A stretch of DNA of 64,000 nt from an uncultured Acidobacteriota bacterium (GTDB taxonomy: Bacteria; Acidobacteriota; Thermoanaerobaculia; Thermoanaerobaculales; Sulfomarinibacteraceae): the NCBI GenBank assembly GCA_963844845.1, contig CAWJPW010000008.1, positions 192,257 to 256,256 on the forward strand, in the 5' to 3' direction. This document shows, one piece after another, positions 757 to 64,000 of this stretch; position 1 is the stretch's first letter, and each line of letters opens with the position of its first letter. The notes below the pieces were generated by a model. The model did no database searches, was not told where the DNA came from, and was given only the letters and a program-made list of their open reading frames with translations. Position numbers and translations under genes: made by a program.

Positions 757-3144
757 TCACAGGGTCTTGAGGTACTCCACCAGGTCGTTGAGCTGGTCCT
801 TGGTCATGTCGTTGGTCACCCCGTGCTGGTCGTGGGGGTTGAAGCGGGTCCAGATCTCCTCCAGCGTCGCCGCCCGCCCGTCGTGCAGGTAGGGCGCGGT
901 CTCGTAGATGTTGGTGAGGTGCGGCACGTCGAAGACGTCGTGGGTGTCGAGCTCGGAGCCGGTGCCCACCGCCACCTGCTCCCGGTTGGTGAAGTAGGGC
1001 GGGCGGTGGCAGGTGGCGCAGCGCTGGGGCTTGGGGATGGGCTTCCCCGCGTTGCCCCGGGTGCGCTCGAACAGAGCCTTGCCGCGGCGCTGAGCCGGGG
1101 TCAGGGTGTCGCCGACGCGGTGACGGTTGGGGTTGCGGGGGATGGTGCAGATGTAGCGTTCGAGAGCCGTGACCTGGTCGGGGGTGAACGGGTCGATGCG
1201 GGTGAAGAAGACCGCCAGGCGCGGACCGCACTGGCGGGCCAGGGTGGCGTTCTTGCCGGTCCACTTGAAGGGCGCGGTGTCGAGGATCCCGCGCAGGCTG
1301 CGGTTGTCCACCGGGTTGAGGCCGAGGCCGTCGGGCTCGATGTCGTAGGTGATGCCATCGACGCCGCCGTCGGGGTGGCAGGAGTGGCAGGAGAACTGTC
1401 CCTCGAAGGTCACCGCCGCGCTGTGGAAGATGCGCTCGCCGCGGCGCGCCAGGGTGAGCTCGGCCGGTCCGCCCAGCGGGATGACGGCGACGCGCGCGAG
1501 GCGCGCCGTGTCGATCACCGAAACCGCGTCGTCGAGGGCGTCGGCGACGTAGACGAAGCGGCCGTCGGGGGCCACTGCGAGCCCGCGCGGATTGTCGCCC
1601 ACCGGGATGCGGCAGGTGACGTACTCGGTGGCAAGGCCCATGTGGTCGGGCAGGACGGTCCGGCGCCGCTCGTCGGTCGCCCCCTCGACCACCGCCCGCA
1701 GGCGCGCGAGGTCGACCACCGCCACCTGATCGACGCCGCCTCCGCTGACGAAGGCGAGGCGGCCGTCCGGGGTGATGACCACGTCGGTGGGATCGGCAAA
1801 GGCCGCAGCGGGCTCGTCGAGCAGTACCTGGTCGACGCGGCCGTCGCGCCACAGGATGCCGAGCCCGTTGGTGAGCACCCAGCCCTGCACCACCCGGGTC
1901 ATGGGCACCAGGTTCTTGGTGCGGATGAGGGTGACGAGGGCGTACTCACCCCCCGGCGCCACCGCCACTCCCTGCACCAGGTTGGCATCCGGGATCATGA
2001 CGCGGGTGTCGACCATCGCCCGCGCGCTGCCCACCACCGTCACCTCGGAGCGGGAGGACTCACGGAAGCCGACGAAGTGCGAGAGGTTGTTGGTGACGAG
2101 GACACGCGCGCCGTCGGCGGTGCGGGCCACCCCCCAGGCGCCGCGGCCGGCGGCCAGCCGCTTGCGCTCACAGCCGGCGGCGAGATCGACCACCGAAATG
2201 TCGCCGGAGCCGGCATTGGCCACGAAGAGCGTGCCGCCCCCAGCGTCGGTGACGAGCCCGTGCGGCTCGTCACCCACCGGGATGGTGGCGGTCACCGCCA
2301 GGCGCGCGGTGTCCACCACCGAAACGGTGTCGTCGCCGCGGTTGGAGACCACCGCGCGGCGTCCGTCGGGGGTCAGGCAGACCCCGTGCGGCAGGGCGCC
2401 CACCGGCACCTCGGCAACCACCCGGCGAGCCCTGGTGTCCACCACCACCAGGCTGTGCGAAGCCTCGCACGCGGCGTAGAGACGGCCGCCGTCGGGGCTC
2501 ACGGCCAGGTTGAACGGGGTCTTGTAAACCACCTCGAAAGGTGCGGCCGCCGTCGCGGCCCGGATCGTCGCATCGTGCGCCGGAAGCGGGGCCGGGAGGC
2601 TTCCCGGCGGCACCGGGTGGGCGATGGCGGCGAGCGCCCGCTCGATGTCGAAGGGGCGGGACCCCAGGACCGTGGTGTGCGAGCCCTTCTCCTTGTGACA
2701 GCCCAGACAGAAGGCGGCGTCCGGCACCTCCAGCGCCGGCCTCGAGGTCACGTCGGCCTCGGCGTGGCTGGAGCCGGCGCCGTGGCAGAGCTCGCACTGG
2801 ACGCCGTCTGCCAGGCGGAAGGTGGGATCGCGCTGCCACCCCTCGGTGTCGGCGGCGGTGGCGTGGCAGCCGAGGCAGATGGGGTTGCTGAAGGGATCGC
2901 CCGGGGTTCCCGAGAGGCGCGCGATCTCCCGCGACTCCGGCCGCGCCAGCGCGGCGTAGGCGCGGGCGTGGGGGGAGCTCTGCCACGGCGTCACCGCATC
3001 GCCCTGCGCGCCGCCCAGGTGACACTGGCGGCACACCGCTACGCCCACCCACACCGCCGGCTCATCGTCCACCGCCGCAGCGGCCGGAAGCGCGGCCAGC
3101 ACCGCCGCCACGAGGGCCGCCGCCGCGCGGCGCCCAGGGCTCAC
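757..3144 (-). CDS. Fusion protein: multihaem cytochrome c + YVTN-type beta-propeller + di-haem cytochrome c peroxidase/MauG-like domain
   Basis: 795-aa ORF with signal peptide. N-terminal CxxCH motifs: CRQCH, CLGCH, CELCH, CLGCH. Central propeller repeats: LYAACEASHSLVVVD, VVSNRGDDTVSVVD, LFVANAGSGDISVVD. C-terminal peroxidase-like part: FSCHSCHPDGG ... CATCH ... APYLHDG. 4-nt overlap with the upstream gene. Confidence 0.85.
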   Translation of the reverse strand: MSPGRRAAAALVAAVLAALPAAAAVDDEPAVWVGVAVCRQCHLGGAQGDAVTPWQSSPHARAYAALARPESREIARLSGTPGDPFSNPICLGCHATAADTEGWQRDPTFRLADGVQCELCHGAGSSHAEADVTSRPALEVPDAAFCLGCHKEKGSHTTVLGSRPFDIERALAAIAHPVPPGSLPAPLPAHDATIRAATAAAPFEVVYKTPFNLAVSPDGGRLYAACEASHSLVVVDTRARRVVAEVPVGALPHGVCLTPDGRRAVVSNRGDDTVSVVDTARLAVTATIPVGDEPHGLVTDAGGGTLFVANAGSGDISVVDLAAGCERKRLAAGRGAWGVARTADGARVLVTNNLSHFVGFRESSRSEVTVVGSARAMVDTRVMIPDANLVQGVAVAPGGEYALVTLIRTKNLVPMTRVVQGWVLTNGLGILWRDGRVDQVLLDEPAAAFADPTDVVITPDGRLAFVSGGGVDQVAVVDLARLRAVVEGATDERRRTVLPDHMGLATEYVTCRIPVGDNPRGLAVAPDGRFVYVADALDDAVSVIDTARLARVAVIPLGGPAELTLARRGERIFHSAAVTFEGQFSCHSCHPDGGVDGITYDIEPDGLGLNPVDNRSLRGILDTAPFKWTGKNATLARQCGPRLAVFFTRIDPFTPDQVTALERYICTIPRNPNRHRVGDTLTPAQRRGKALFERTRGNAGKPIPKPQRCATCHRPPYFTNREQVAVGTGSELDTHDVFDVPHLTNIYETAPYLHDGRAATLEEIWTRFNPHDQHGVTNDMTKDQLNDLVEYLKTL

Positions 3145-4766
3145 CGCGCCATCTCCTTCGCCGGCTCGGTCACCACCAGCACACGGTCCGCGGCGACGTG
3201 CTCCAACGTGGTGACCAGGCCACTGGGCCAGCGCACCTCGAGACGGTCCACGGTGCGCTGTGAGCCGAGCCCGAAGTGCGCCCGCGGGTCGCTCTGCGAC
3301 AGGTAGCCGGAGGCGGCCCGGATCTCACGCATCTGGGTCACCCCCCCCGCGGTCACACGGATGCGGGCGCCGATTCCGTCGCGGTTGGAGCGCGTGCCCA
3401 CCGGGCGCACCATCAACCAGTGGCTGCGGTTGCCGCCGTCGTTGCGGAGCAGGCGCGGGCCCGCGTTGAGGTCGAGCACCAGCACGTCGAGGTCGCCGTC
3501 GTTGTCGTAGTCGCCCACCGCCGAGCCCCGGCTCACCAGCTTGACCGCCAGCGCGGGCCCCACCTGGCGGGAGACGTCGGCGAAGTGCCGGCCGTCCAGG
3601 TTGCGCAGGACGAGGTCCTCCTCGGGCTCGAGATGGTGGGCGTCGCCGTTGGCGATGAAGATGTCGAGGCGGCCGTCGCCGTCGAAGTCGAAGAGATTGC
3701 CGGACCACGAGACGTACTGACCGCACGCGGCCGCGAGGCCGGCCTGGGCGCTCTCGTCCTCGAAGCCGTGGCCGGTGTTGTGGTAGAGGCAGCCATAGCC
3801 CATGTCCGGCACCAGCACGTCCATGCGGCCGTCGTTGTCGATGTCGCCGGGCTCGGGCCCCATGGCCGAGGTCGCCTCGCCGTTCTCACCGTAGGCGGTG
3901 CCGGCGGTGAGGGCGACGTTCACGAAGGTGCCGTCGCCCCGGTTGCGGTACAGGTAGTTCTCCATGGCATCGTTGGCGACGAAGAGGTCCGGCCAGCCGT
4001 CGTCGTCCAGGTCGCAGGCGCCGACCCCCATGGCCCGCCCGGCGGGGTTGGCGATCCCGGCGGCGGCGCTCACGTCGGCGAAGGTGCCGTCACCCTGGTT
4101 GCGGTAGAGCGCGTCCGCCGTGCCCGGGTAGGAGAGCGGCCCGGGGAAACCGTCGCCGGCGTAGAAGCCGCGATACTCCGGGTCGAAGCACAGGTAGTTG
4201 CCCACGAAGAGATCGAGGTCGCCATCGCGATCGTAGTCGAAGAAGGTGCAGCCGGTGCTCCAGCGCTGGCATGCCACGCCGGCGGCGTCGGTGACGTCGC
4301 TGAAGCGCCCGCCGCCGTCGTTGCGGTAGAGCACATTGCGCCCGTAGTTGGTGACGTAGAGGTCGGTGTCGCCGTCGTTGTCGTAGTCGGCGGCGGTGCA
4401 GCCCATGCCGTAGCCGCGGTCACCCACTCCGGCGGCCGCGGTGACGTCGGTGAAGGTCCCGTCACCGTTGTTGCGGTACAGGGCGTTGGCCAGGCGGCCA
4501 TCCAGCGCCCGGCCGCGCACGTTGCTGACGCCCCTGAGGTAGCAGCCGTTCACCAGGTAGATGTCGAGGTCGCCGTCGCCGTCGTAGTCGAGGAACGCGC
4601 AGCCGGCGCCGGTGGACTCGACGATGGTGCTGAGGTCGTCGTCGCCGATGCTGTGGCTCCAGGTGATCCCCGCCGCCGCGGTGACGTCCACCAGCCGGGG
4701 CAGCGGCACCGTGGCGGCCGCGGCGACGGCGACCAGCCCGAGGAGGACGGCTCGCCACGACCTCAT
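3141..4766 (-). CDS. CRTAC1 / ASPIC-UnbV family FG-GAP (VCBS) repeat protein, secreted
   Basis: 541-aa ORF with signal peptide. Repeated Ca-binding-type motifs: DYDGDGDLD, DYDNDGDTD, DYDRDGDLD, DLDDDGWPD, DFDGDGRLD, DYDNDGDLD. C-terminal UnbV/ASPIC-like segment: NRDGIGARIRV...ASGYLSQSDPRAHFGLG. Confidence 0.85.
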   Translation of the reverse strand: MRSWRAVLLGLVAVAAAATVPLPRLVDVTAAAGITWSHSIGDDDLSTIVESTGAGCAFLDYDGDGDLDIYLVNGCYLRGVSNVRGRALDGRLANALYRNNGDGTFTDVTAAAGVGDRGYGMGCTAADYDNDGDTDLYVTNYGRNVLYRNDGGGRFSDVTDAAGVACQRWSTGCTFFDYDRDGDLDLFVGNYLCFDPEYRGFYAGDGFPGPLSYPGTADALYRNQGDGTFADVSAAAGIANPAGRAMGVGACDLDDDGWPDLFVANDAMENYLYRNRGDGTFVNVALTAGTAYGENGEATSAMGPEPGDIDNDGRMDVLVPDMGYGCLYHNTGHGFEDESAQAGLAAACGQYVSWSGNLFDFDGDGRLDIFIANGDAHHLEPEEDLVLRNLDGRHFADVSRQVGPALAVKLVSRGSAVGDYDNDGDLDVLVLDLNAGPRLLRNDGGNRSHWLMVRPVGTRSNRDGIGARIRVTAGGVTQMREIRAASGYLSQSDPRAHFGLGSQRTVDRLEVRWPSGLVTTLEHVAADRVLVVTEPAKEMAR

Positions 4767-27049: not shown

Positions 27050-27432
27050 GAACCTCGGCCCCGGTCGCGGCGCCGGCCCCGGACACCGCGTCGGCTCCTG
27101 ATGCTCCCAACCCCGGCTCCCGGGCGGCGGCCTTGCCGCCGCCCGTCGGCGCGGCCCCGGGGGCGGCAACGGCACACGCAGGCAGACGGCAGCACGGCCG
27201 TCCCCGGGCCCTGCGCCGAGTCGCCTCCCTGGTCGCTCGGAGCAAGTACTCCGAACGCCAAGGGCCGTGGGAGCCCCCCATGACGTTTCCCGCGAACGCC
27301 CTCCCGGCGAGGAAGCGCTCCCGGGAAAGCGTCATGGACGGCACGCCCGCCGGAGGACACCTTCTCCGGAGGACACCTGCTCCGCGGCGGTATCGGACGC
27401 GGCCGCGGTCCCCGTCCCGGCCCCGGACGCTG
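27050..27432 (+). repeat. Repeat family 1, copy 1 (core about 27098-27390), structured non-coding element
   Basis: Block-wise identity with 33086-33357 (minus) and 63297-63570 (plus). Frame-breaking indels between copies; hairpins conserved with compensatory changes; flanked by GGNCCN-type hexamer runs. Confidence 0.8.
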
Positions 27433-45876: not shown

Positions 45877-46287
45877 ATGGCACCTCAGGAACCACAGGTG
45901 GCTGACGAAGCGGCCGAGCGGGCCCGACGCGCCGCCGCGGCGGTCGGGGTACCCGCCGCGCGCCGGCACGTCCTGCTGTGCTGCGACCAGAGCGTACCGA
46001 AGTGCTGCGAGCGGGAGCGCTCACTGGCGTCGTGGTCGTACCTCAAGGCGCGCCTCCGCGAGCTCGGCCTCTCCGAGACGGGCGGCGTCCTGCGCACCAA
46101 GGTCAACTGCCTGCGGGTCTGCACGGACGGCCCCATCGCCGTGGTCTACCCCGAGGGCGCCTGGTACCACTCGTGCACCCCGGTGGTGCTCGAGCGGATC
46201 ATCCAGGAGCACCTGGTCGGCGGCGAGATCGTGGAGGAGTACTGCTTCGCGGTGCGGCCGCTGGAGCCCGCCCATCCCAACCGGTGA
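45877..46287 (+). CDS. Thioredoxin-like [2Fe-2S] ferredoxin-domain protein
   Basis: 136 aa. Cys clusters [14 protein letters not shown] and [21 protein letters not shown]. Confidence 0.7.
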
Positions 46288-46390: not shown

Positions 46391-46575
46391 GATTCCCAAG
46401 TCCGAGCAGCTCGTCGAGCTTCGTCGCGAGACCGCGGAGGTGCCTGTCAGCGTGGTGATCCGAACAAGGCGGACCCAGAGGCGCAGCAGCGCTCCGTCGA
46501 GGACTCCGCCGCCGGGAGGAGCGCCGCGATGGCAGGTGCATCCGCGGGCGCAGGAGATGCTCGGCGAGGTGCCCG
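46391..46575 (+). repeat. Repeat family 2, copy A (about 175-nt structured element)
   Basis: Aligns with 56205-56392, 63594-63735 and 63826-64000. Shared core: CTTCGTCGCGAGACCGCGGAGG...GGTGATyCGAmCAAGG...GCCGCCGGGAGrAGCGCC. Confidence 0.8.
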
Positions 46576-46577
46576 GG

Positions 46578-46844
46578 CTACGCCACCGCCCAGATGAGGC
46601 CGCCGATCACCGCCAGGGGGATGAGCAGGATGAGCCCCACGACCAGGGCGATCGGGCCGAGGACGGCCAGCAGCACTCCGCCCACCACCAGCAGGAACAG
46701 CCCTTTGAGCAGAACCAGGCCGAGCCACAGCGGGAGCAGCGCCAGCTTGAAGATGAGCTTGAGCAGCGTCCCCAGCAGAACCACCACCCCCACCACGAGG
46801 CCGATGGCCATGAGCACCGCGAAGATCCCGAAAAGCTCGAACAT
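46578..46844 (-). CDS. Small hydrophobic membrane protein (about 88 aa, 3 TM)
   Basis: ORF 46578..46892 trimmed to ATG 46844, preceded by GGAGG. MFELFGIFAVLMAIGLVVGVVVLLG... Confidence 0.6.
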   Translation of the reverse strand: MFELFGIFAVLMAIGLVVGVVVLLGTLLKLIFKLALLPLWLGLVLLKGLFLLVVGGVLLAVLGPIALVVGLILLIPLAVIGGLIWAVA

Positions 46845-47091
46845 GCTCGCCTCCAACCGTGTATACGCAGCCACCCCCACCCGAGTTCCCACTCGGGCCT
46901 CCGCTCCTGGTGTCTCAGACGCTCAGCACGGGCCTCCGGGTGGCAGGGTCCGTGCTCTTCTCACCCATGCCATCCCATTTCCAGAGCAATCGGACGCAGC
47001 CGCGGAGAGTCCGCGCGCCGCCACCGCCGCGGCATCGCCCGCCTCGGCACATCGGACGATCTCAATTGCATCCGTTTCCAGCGCCCGCCGC

Positions 47092-51732: not shown

Positions 51733-51887
51733 AGTGCCTCCTCCGGCGCCGGGCGCCGGCCGTCTGTTTGAGCCGAAGTCTCCTGCTCATGCTAGCACGC
51801 AGGCACTCCCCCAAACGCCGCGGATGTGGCCTCCGTAAAGTGGGTGGACGACGACACGGATGATCGTCGGACAACCTCCTTCCCTTC

Positions 51888-56039: not shown

Positions 56040-56204
56040 CCGCTGCGGCACTGTTCGCGGGCGCACCCGCATCCGACCGGGAACCCGGAAGCCCTCCAAA
56101 GCAGCTGCCGGCAGCTCCCCTTCGTCGCCCGATCTCTCGATGACCCCCATCGCAACGACGACCACCAGCGACTTCTCCAGGCCGAAGCCCGTCCTCCCGT
56201 CACC

Positions 56205-56392
56205 CGTCGAGCCCCCATGTCTCGCCAGTCTTCGTCGCGAGACCGCGGAGGTGCCCATCAGCATGGTGATTCGACCAAGGAGCCGCCGCAGGCGTAGCAG
56301 CGCTACGTCGAGGACGGCGCCGCCGGGAGAAGCGCCGCGATGGCGGGTGCATCCGCGGTCGCAGCAGAAGACTGGCGAGACATGGGGGCGAC
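56205..56392 (+). repeat. Repeat family 2, copy B (complete, closed by a perfect 22-bp stem)
   Basis: CCCCCATGTCTCGCCAGTCTTC (56212-56233) is the exact reverse complement of GAAGACTGGCGAGACATGGGGG (56367-56388). Inner stem: GACCGCGGA/TCCGCGGTC. Confidence 0.85.
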
Positions 56393-56446
56393 TGGTAGAA
56401 TCCCGGGCCGACCGGGTGGTTCTCGCCACCCCGGGAGGTCCTGCCC

Positions 56447-63247: not shown

Positions 63248-63575
63248 CCGGTCCCGGTCCCGGTCACGGTCACGGCCGCGGCCACCGCCCCGGTTGCTGA
63301 TGCTCCCGACACCGGCTCCCGGGCGGCACAGCCGCCGGGCGGCGCGGTCTCGGGGGCGGCAGCGGCACCGGCTGGGAGACGGCAGCGAGGCCGCCCCCGG
63401 GCCCCGGCGCCGAGTCGCCTGCGTCGTCGTTCGAGGGCACTAATCCGAGCGGAGTACCCGCGGATTGCCACCCATGGCATTTCCCGCAGGGGCGCTTCGA
63501 GTGAGAAGACGTTCCCGGGAAGATGCCATGGGTGGCACGTCCCGCCGAGGGAGACCTGCTCCGGGGCGGCCTCGG
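63248..63575 (+). repeat. Repeat family 1, copy 3 (core about 63297-63570)
   Basis: Aligns with copies 1 and 2. 5' flank is a hexamer run: CCGGTCCCGGTCCCGGTCACGGTCACGG. Hairpin CATGGCATTTCCCG/CGGGAA(G)ATGCCATG carries two compensatory pair changes relative to copy 1. Confidence 0.8.
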
Positions 63576-63825: not shown

Positions 63826-64000
63826 GGTTCCCAAGCCCGCGGGTCTCGCCGGGCTTCGTCGCGAGACCGCAGAGCCGCCTGTCAGGGTGGTGATTCGACC
63901 AAGGCTGCGCCGAGGCGTAGCCCAGCTACGTCGCAGGCGCAGCCGCCGGGAGAAGCGCCGCCCTGACTGGTGGATCTGCGGTCGCAGCAGACGACCGGCG
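63826..64000 (+). repeat. Repeat family 2, copy D (runs off the window end)
   Basis: The inner stem has a compensatory change (GACCGCAGA/TCTGCGGTC versus GACCGCGGA/TCCGCGGTC in copy B). The closing stem is only partly visible before the window ends. Confidence 0.75.

Follow-up and report, generated by a model that had tools for sequence, protein, structure and literature searches.

Structured foldback repeats, probably mobile, in Acidobacteriota genomes, with one copy upstream of a cysteine synthase gene

Introduction

In a 64-kb stretch of Acidobacteriota DNA, hereafter called the window, a cysteine synthase gene (cysK) is preceded at close range by a long inverted repeat, related copies of which are found elsewhere in the same stretch. 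This raises the question of whether the repeat belongs to the gene, as a leader or a riboswitch would, or is an element of independent standing. Both possibilities had been named in an initial annotation made from the DNA letters alone, which compared the element with riboswitch expression platforms and with transposon-end hairpins.

Several kinds of bacterial repeats provide the background for this question. REPINs are doublets that fold into hairpins, with compensatory changes preserving both the length of the spacer and the pairing; two alternative folds, a rod and a "clover," compete, and a single-stranded DNA (ssDNA) intermediate has been proposed (PMC3116915). Acidobacteria carry tyrosine transposases flanked by terminal inverted repeats (TIRs), known as TIRYTs, and some of these TIRs belong to repeat families (PMC3733652). 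Bacterial MITEs are small, intergenic, multicopy foldback sequences that are polymorphic in presence, and ERIC and other hairpin repeats act on neighbouring mRNAs, where the RNA hairpin can alter mRNA decay (PMC3184786).

Results

Fold of the element upstream of cysK

The copy upstream of cysK (copy B; Table 1) is complete; its ends were placed by analogy with a filled/empty site pair described below, where the copy in the related genome L013 reads AGCCC...GGGCT. For the interval 56205-56392 the predicted fold is one rod-like hairpin of -129.6 kcal/mol, compared with -80.9 ± 4.4 kcal/mol for 200 dinucleotide shuffles, none of which was as good (z = -11.0), and its reverse strand is less stable (-115.1 kcal/mol). 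The arms of the outer stem had been described as exact reverse complements over 22 bp; this is so, and the perfect inverted repeat extends to 23 bp. The minimum-free-energy fold includes the inner stem GACCGCGGA/TCCGCGGTC as well as the hairpin GGCGTAGC-AGC-GCTACGTC (56291-56309), both recognised earlier. The internal loops of the core are asymmetric and conserved, and by our reading of the pair table the core may contain a tandem G.A/A.G (56273-56274 opposite 56327-56328) flanked by a covarying pair. Between the end of the element and the cysK start codon (ATG, 56447) lie 56 nt, so that the close upstream position given earlier holds, and the distance of 55 nt does not.

As the initial annotation implied, no family of Rfam 15 matches the element. 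The entire 64-kb window yielded no Rfam family at gathering score and no tRNA gene, and at E ≤ 10 the search of copies A and B and of the copies in the related genomes L001 and L013 returned only generic hairpin or miRNA-like noise.

Table 1. Element copies and associated features in the window.
Feature	Position	Strand	Remarks
Copy A	46399-46579	+	complete; covariance model (CM) score 153 bits
Empty site	51733-51859	.	127-nt divergent spacer; relative L013 holds a 179-nt copy there
Copy B	56210-56390	+	complete, 181 nt; 5'-AGCCCC to GGGGGCG-3'; CM score 166 bits
5' arm of outer stem, copy B	56211-56233	+	GCCCCCATGTCTCGCCAGTCTTC; pairs with 56367-56389
Clamp of 5' arm, copy B	56211-56215		GCCCC; conserved
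Variable part of 5' arm, copy B	~56216-56230		variable but paired; followed by conserved TTC
Conserved core, copy B	56234-56366	+	internal loops GUC/A and GA/GCA; stem GACCGCGGA/UCCGCGGUC; conserved strands GGUGAUUCGACCAAGG and CCGGGAGAAGCGCCGC
Apical hairpin, copy B	56291-56309	+	GGCGUAGC-AGC-GCUACGUC; triloop variable among copies
3' arm of outer stem, copy B	56367-56389	+	23-bp perfect inverted repeat
Extended -10 element of cysK (outside the element)	56393-56401	+	TGGTAGAAT; directly 3' of copy B; putative promoter role, from its conservation
Copy C	63600 to ~63735	+	decayed: 5' three quarters kept, 3' arm lost; CM score only 63.8 bits
Copy D	63834-64000	+	cut by the window end; in tandem with C; CM score 155.8 bits

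Copies in the window and in related genomes

Motif and repeat searches found four copies (A-D) in the window, all on the + strand. Copy A sits between the convergent genes 45877-46287 (+) and 46578-46892 (-). The alignment of copy C with the others diverges past ATGGC, and its sense strand has no excess stability. Since C and D share the first 14 nt of the arm as well as the flank, they seem to result from a local tandem duplication.

Species-representative genomes totalling 596 Gb, scanned for a sequence pattern of the element, yielded one real homologue, in the Acidobacteriota MAG contig L001 (JAADFK010000196.1), and one chance match (L002). We then trained a covariance model on A, B, D and the L001 copy (L001a), which revealed two further copies, a rearranged one beside L001a (L001b) and a diverged one in L013 (L013c, 73.6 bits). 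L013 is a contig of GCA_975902885.1 and bears the closest cysK, 89% identical to that of the window. Together with the four of the window, these three, from two related Acidobacteriota MAGs, bring the known copies to seven. L001a and L001b stand head to head in a convergent spacer (L001:2360-2940), each antisense to its nearest gene, and L001b is a composite with an internal deletion. The ~200 nt between them are visibly more AT-rich than the surroundings with their ~72% GC, and a 9-10-mer, CCCCATCCG, is common to the flank of one L001 copy and the arm of the other. L013c (179 nt, L013:3831-4009) occupies a spacer from which a kinase gene (-) and a CN_hydrolase/NAD_synthase gene (+) diverge.

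When applied to the more distant relatives L014-L019, the covariance model picked up other GC-rich palindromes but no true copy; the Thermoanaerobaculia-like loci without a copy include L014-L017, with a cysK of 71-72% identity, and L018, with an EF-G gene of 78% identity. A pattern scan of metagenome contigs returned ten loci, all chance matches inside genes, and neither one scan of viral contigs nor BLAST searches against plasmid and phage collections produced a match. The pattern used for the genome and metagenome scans required GGTGATNCGANCAAGG, which is missing from the diverged L013 copy, and so more distant members would have been overlooked; for this pattern, the family appears to be narrow, with three MAGs among the 596 Gb of genomes and the metagenome set. 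A 13.8-kb Logan contig duplicates part of the window.

Other repeats were seen along the way. The spacers of L014 (16440-16520 and 9620-10000) and L016 (9567-10000) hold other long GC-rich palindromes, one of them a nearly perfect 80-nt palindrome, and several hairpin repeat families seem to populate the genomes of these relatives. The window itself contains a second, unrelated intergenic repeat (27050-27370 and 63250-63575, ~80% identical over ~330 nt) with a ~20-bp hairpin (63466-63537); it occurs once 5' of an arylsulfotransferase-like gene and once between the EF-G gene and copy C. The largest families of direct repeats in the window (3400-4650, - strand) are internal repeats of an FG-GAP/VCBS-like protein encoded by a 541-aa ORF (3141-4766), as assigned from the repeat sequences.

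Covariation and strand preference

For the five intact copies, RNAalifold predicted 74 pairs, of which 37 carry compensatory changes on both sides. The shuffled alignments had 12.8 such pairs on average, none of 500 shuffles reached 37, and slid partners gave at most 11. Similarly, 92.3% of the cells are paired, compared with 77.5% in the shuffles. Both sides have changed in 18 of the 25 pairs of the outer stem (helix 1), while the apical hairpin (helix 5) has compensatory changes in three of eight pairs and 95% of its cells paired. The pair table and the shuffles therefore bear out the earlier claim of a real, discrete and structured repeat family with covarying stems.

The sense strand is more stable than the antisense strand by 16-47 kcal/mol in every intact copy, but not in the decayed copies C and L001b. 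In the paired columns, G.U was found in 19 and A.C in five (p = 0.003), and counting only copy-specific singletons still gave 13 and five, respectively (p = 0.048). The excess of G.U over A.C, together with the stability of the sense strand, means that one defined strand has been selected to fold in single-stranded form. Selection thus keeps this particular strand folded as a rod-like hairpin, and these data do not tell RNA from ssDNA.

Conservation is distributed unevenly along the element. The terminal 5-6 bp, AGCCCG/CGGGCT, are conserved in all copies, with the terminal A replaced by G in L001a, and the next ~15 bp vary in sequence between copies and stay paired. Exactly 20 nt separate the terminal GCCC from the core (TTCG/TTCGTCGCGAG) in seven copies out of seven. 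Among A, B, D and L001a, the core is 74-86% identical, compared with 28-75% for the variable arm. The outer stem consists entirely of Watson-Crick pairs in B (23/23) and almost entirely in L001a (24/25), whereas A has 19 Watson-Crick pairs, two G.U pairs and three mismatches, and L013c has five G.U pairs and one mismatch. The initial annotation had stated that the outer stems differ completely in sequence and yet keep their pairing. The pairing is indeed preserved, as some 15 pairs vary and remain paired, but the sequences are not completely different: the arms of B and D are 75% identical, those of A and B 41%, and the terminal 5-6 bp are conserved throughout. Nor do the motifs that had been called invariant deserve this name, since copy A carries GGTGATCCGAACAAGG and GGGAGGAG and the L013 copy deviates further.

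Compared with the flanks and with other sequence of the window, the variable arms gave only chance matches of 8-12 nt, so that copying of the arm from flanking DNA was rejected as an explanation. Coding potential is not kept across the copies, as indels and the variable arms break any frame.

Position of copy B relative to the cysK promoter

Directly 3' of copy B lies the extended -10 element of cysK, which has counterparts in three relatives without the repeat: TGCTAGACT in L013 and GGGTAGAAT in L014 and L016. Because this element is conserved where the repeat is absent, copy B probably lies upstream of the cysK promoter. Farther downstream, a leader hairpin GGGTGG/CCACCC (56414-56431) abuts the Shine-Dalgarno sequence GGGAGG, which is followed by the start codon; the hairpin and the Shine-Dalgarno sequence are both conserved in L013. 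The interval 56393-56446 could therefore hold a small translational control hairpin of cysK, and in Rfam it gave only a spurious match to flavi_FSE. Neither a terminator-like site 3' of copy B nor an overlap of the element with the Shine-Dalgarno sequence was found.

The spacer before cysK is 407 nt long in the window and 98 nt in L013, where the orthologous spacer has no copy B; the element is absent upstream of cysK in L014, L015, L016 and L017 as well. The 169 nt between the stop codon of the upstream gene and copy B (56041-56209) are also missing from L013, and so the spacer has gained more than the element. These 169 nt are unique sequence, not another repeat. Long spacers also occur upstream of cysK in L014 and L016.

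The other copies have unrelated genes as neighbours: a hypothetical gene and EF-G, kinase, PRK and HDAC genes. As to the two mutually exclusive conformations proposed for the element, the alternative hairpin GTCTCGC...GCGAGAC is found in B, C and D, has a weak form in A, and is lacking in the copies of L001 and L013. An expression platform for cysteine synthase, as first suggested, does not agree with an element that sits upstream of the extended -10, is not conserved at the locus and recurs beside unrelated genes. Hence, copy B is not a cysteine synthase leader or riboswitch.

Occupancy of orthologous sites

L013 is collinear with the window over 48.4-57.5 kb of the latter, and occupancy in this segment is reciprocal: copy B is present in the window and absent from L013, and L013c is present in L013 and absent from the window. 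At the empty site (Table 1) the flanks can be aligned right to the termini of the element, with CACTCCCCC|AAACGCC in the window and GACCCCG|AGCCCAC...GCGGGCT|AAACGCC in L013, and nothing is duplicated at the filled/empty join ...CCCC(G/C)|AAACGCC. This alignment defines the exact termini 5'-AGCCCG...CGGGCT-3' and the lack of a target-site duplication, and no repeated flanks are evident at the other copies. We conclude that copies are gained or lost precisely at these termini, without target-site duplication, and that some decay after insertion; absence at an orthologous site could reflect a precise loss instead of a gain.

There was no case of the same position being occupied in two genomes. 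Of the two spacers open to comparison between the window and L013, each is filled in one and empty in the other, and the syntenic locus of L018 has no copy after the EF-G gene. Copies A-D all follow + strand genes in the sense orientation, both L001 copies run antisense to their nearest genes, and L013c lies in a divergent promoter spacer. The 5' flanks of the seven copies are pyrimidine-rich and not fixed: TTCCCA (A and D), CTCACA (C), CTTCAA (L001b), GCGTTT (L013c), CCGTCG (B) and TTTTCC (L001a). We considered whether the outer stem could be a pre-existing palindromic target, such as a terminator, split by the insertion, and rejected this, as the variable segment is bounded on its outer side by the conserved termini and no such palindrome exists at the empty site.

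Near L013c (L013:3800-3830), another motif resembling an extended -10, TGCTAGCAT, precedes the kinase gene, with the element directly upstream of it. Together with TGGTAGAAT before cysK, this makes two independent cases of an element 3' end a few nucleotides upstream of TGnTAnnnT, which may be a coincidence or a promoter-proximal preference.

Among the ~30 ORFs scanned in the 64-kb window, none had a transposase-, reverse transcriptase- (RT) or TnpB-like Pfam match. No consensus promoter or terminator was found beside A, B, C or D, which is weak evidence, as the consensus scans were crude. The + strand GC skew is negative throughout the 64-kb window (about -0.04).

Discussion

A probable mobile foldback element

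The insertion is discrete and leaves no duplication, the conserved ends are short, one strand is folded preferentially, a segment of the arms is constrained, copies decay, and presence varies between relatives. Taken together, these properties exclude both a riboswitch and a classical DDE-type MITE. We consider it probable, with moderate confidence, that the copies form a lineage-restricted family of non-autonomous mobile foldback elements of ~181 bp, REPIN-like or IS200/IS605-like, which move as a single-stranded hairpin. Of the two comparisons made initially, that with transposon-end hairpins comes closer to this reading than that with riboswitches.

Each copy would be built of a 5-6 bp terminal clamp AGCCCG/CGGGCT, a stretch of ~15 bp that is fixed in length and free in sequence as long as it pairs, and a conserved asymmetric core of ~135 nt. 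The element would move as a single-stranded hairpin mobilised in trans, most likely by a tyrosine HUH transposase of the IS200/IS605, RAYT or TIRYT type encoded elsewhere in the genome, and the movement could follow the "peel and paste" route proposed for REPINs. Where a sense copy lies within a transcription unit, the transcript would bear a hairpin of high stability, with possible consequences for read-through or mRNA decay, as with ERIC and REP; by this analogy, effects on adjoining mRNAs are plausible.

Some observations sit less well with a mobile ssDNA hairpin. RAYT or IS200-type enzymes recognise hairpins of ~25 nt, and the conserved core is far longer and more elaborate. The pairing is rich in G.U, with G.U kept across copies, and the tandem G.A is also more RNA-like than ssDNA-like. 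No mobilising gene was seen in the 64-kb window. The known copies are only seven and establish no target motif, as A and D share TTCCCA and the others differ. The negative + strand GC skew is opposite to targeting of the lagging-strand template, if the usual skew rule holds, which is weak evidence. Finally, the absence of copies at orthologous sites could equally be a precise loss.

Comparison with known repeat families

Like REPINs with their RAYTs and TIRtrons with their TIRYTs, the elements are non-autonomous and intergenic and form one long hairpin in ssDNA or RNA. The likeness to the REPIN/RAYT system extends to a segment in which compensatory changes keep only length and pairing, to an alternative fold beside the rod that recalls the "clover," and to the occurrence of clusters, inverted pairs and decayed remnants without target-site duplication. 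However, the order of conserved and variable parts is different. REPINs have conserved 16-25-mers at both ends and a variable spacer in the middle, whereas here ~6 bp at the ends are conserved, followed by variable paired sequence, and a long conserved asymmetric core with RNA-like G.U and G.A features occupies the centre. In addition, the element has no terminal GTAG/CGTC tag, with CGTC found only inside TTCGTCGCGAG, it shows no sequence similarity to REPINs or TIRYT-associated repeats, and no RAYT or TIRYT gene flanked by it was seen in the 64-kb window.

IS200/IS605-derived palindrome-associated elements (PATEs) resemble the element in having no classical TIRs, no target duplication and strand-specific DNA hairpins that tolerate G.T. 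PATEs and IS200/IS605 elements have separate small subterminal hairpins, left and right, and their insertion takes place 3' of a fixed sequence of four or five nucleotides. By contrast, the two ends of the present element pair with each other over its full length, and the seven copies reveal no fixed target. ERIC/IRU, Correia, RUP and other hairpin MITEs are likewise imperfect palindromes of ~100-200 bp in spacers, often located 3' of genes and co-transcribed with them, and their occupancy also varies between close relatives, but they are bounded by conserved TIRs and flanked by duplications of TA or another target (PMC3184786), both of which the element lacks, and they show no sequence similarity to it.

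Alternative explanations

The copies could instead form a functional RNA family, acting as sense hairpins in cis (in processing or stabilisation, or as a site for RNase III or another protein) or as small RNAs, spread by duplication and selected by the host, with mobility incidental or absent. We regard this as unlikely. It would account well for the strong covariation and strand-specific G.U pairing, for the G.U pairs kept across copies and, in our reading, the tandem G.A beside a covarying pair, for the sense orientation of all four window copies behind + strand genes, and for an outer helix fixed at ~25 bp, as a measuring enzyme would need. The core, 74-86% identical while the arms have diverged, points to purifying selection on the core sequence in each lineage. 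A host function is harder to reconcile with the lack of any position shared by two genomes and the differing occupancy of both comparable window/L013 spacers, with the decay of C and L001b, or with the placement of the other copies, antisense to the nearest genes in L001 and in a divergent promoter spacer in the case of L013c. The window copies also lack an adjoining consensus promoter or terminator, and for the pattern searched the family is restricted to three MAGs among the 596 Gb of genomes and the metagenome set. As a special case, a family of trans-acting small RNA genes was rejected on the absence of a consensus promoter or terminator at A-D, weak evidence given the crude scans, and on the lack of conserved positions.

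A more speculative possibility, which we see as a long shot, is a previously undescribed structured mobile element in which the 135-nt core serves as a protein-binding scaffold and the 15-bp paired module as a short-duplex processing site or as a specificity determinant renewed at each transposition, the whole being propagated or used via RNA, not via REPIN-like ssDNA. The corresponding general explanation, an RNA-based mobile or guide-like element with the core as a protein-binding scaffold and the fixed-length variable duplex as a specificity or processing module (a measured cut releasing a short duplex, or copying through an RNA intermediate), is very unlikely. What recommends it is the 20-nt distance from terminus to core, exact in every one of the seven copies, with a free sequence whose pairing is kept, the RNA-like G.U and G.A features, and a pairing that brings the 5' and 3' ends together. 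Moreover, the perfect stems of 23-24 bp in B, in L001a and in the inner part of L001b suggest that the arms are renewed together instead of drifting. Nevertheless, the older copies A and L013c show ordinary decay, with G.U pairs and mismatches, the variable arms match neither the flanks nor the window beyond chance 8-12-mers, no RT, nuclease or Argonaute-like gene is nearby, and seven copies are a very small sample. No RT was seen close to any of the copies, which led us to reject a retron or other RT-linked RNA.

A classical MITE, whose terminal inverted repeats would be recognised in double-stranded form by a DDE transposase, is highly improbable. In its favour, the elements are small, intergenic, multicopy, foldback and polymorphic in presence, as is general for MITEs (PMC3184786), and they are non-coding. 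However, the one clean filled/empty pair has no target-site duplication, and none is evident elsewhere; the conserved ends comprise only 5-6 bp and the following 15 bp vary, whereas TIRs typically exceed 10 bp; and the strand asymmetry of pairing would not be expected of a double-stranded DNA recognition site. The initial statement that the element is not a classical MITE thus agrees with the ~6 bp of conserved termini and with the clean filled/empty pair.

A riboswitch or cis-regulatory leader of cysK, switching between the rod closed by 22 bp and the local GTCTCGC/GCGAGAC hairpin, retains next to no credibility: against the distance of 56 nt to the gene and the two mutually exclusive pairings of copy B stand the conserved -10 element and leader hairpin downstream of it, the cysK genes of L013-L017 that do without the element, the unrelated genes beside the remaining copies, the L001 and L013 copies devoid of the alternative hairpin, and the lack of both a terminator and a Shine-Dalgarno overlap. 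What the element has in common with sulfur-metabolism riboswitches and leaders (e.g., the SAM classes of Rfam) is a structured fold, covarying and RNA-like, 5' of cysK, but it has no Rfam match, lies upstream of the likely promoter, is not conserved at the locus and recurs at unrelated loci.

Implications

If the elements are indeed mobile foldback repeats, the cysteine synthase gene loses a false candidate riboswitch, and a well-defined repeat family is added from Thermoanaerobaculia-like Acidobacteriota, whose mobile DNA has barely been described. The architecture falls outside both textbook classes: unlike MITEs, the elements have neither TIRs nor target duplication, and the order of conserved and variable parts is opposite to that of REPINs. 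Among the structured repeats of bacteria, this build makes them an unusual variant. With their strict 20-nt spacing and their strand-specific, G.U-rich pairing, they are a useful test case for distinguishing an ssDNA transposition substrate from selection on RNA. In the genomes that carry it, the family is likely to break metagenome assemblies and to mislead screens for RNA motifs.
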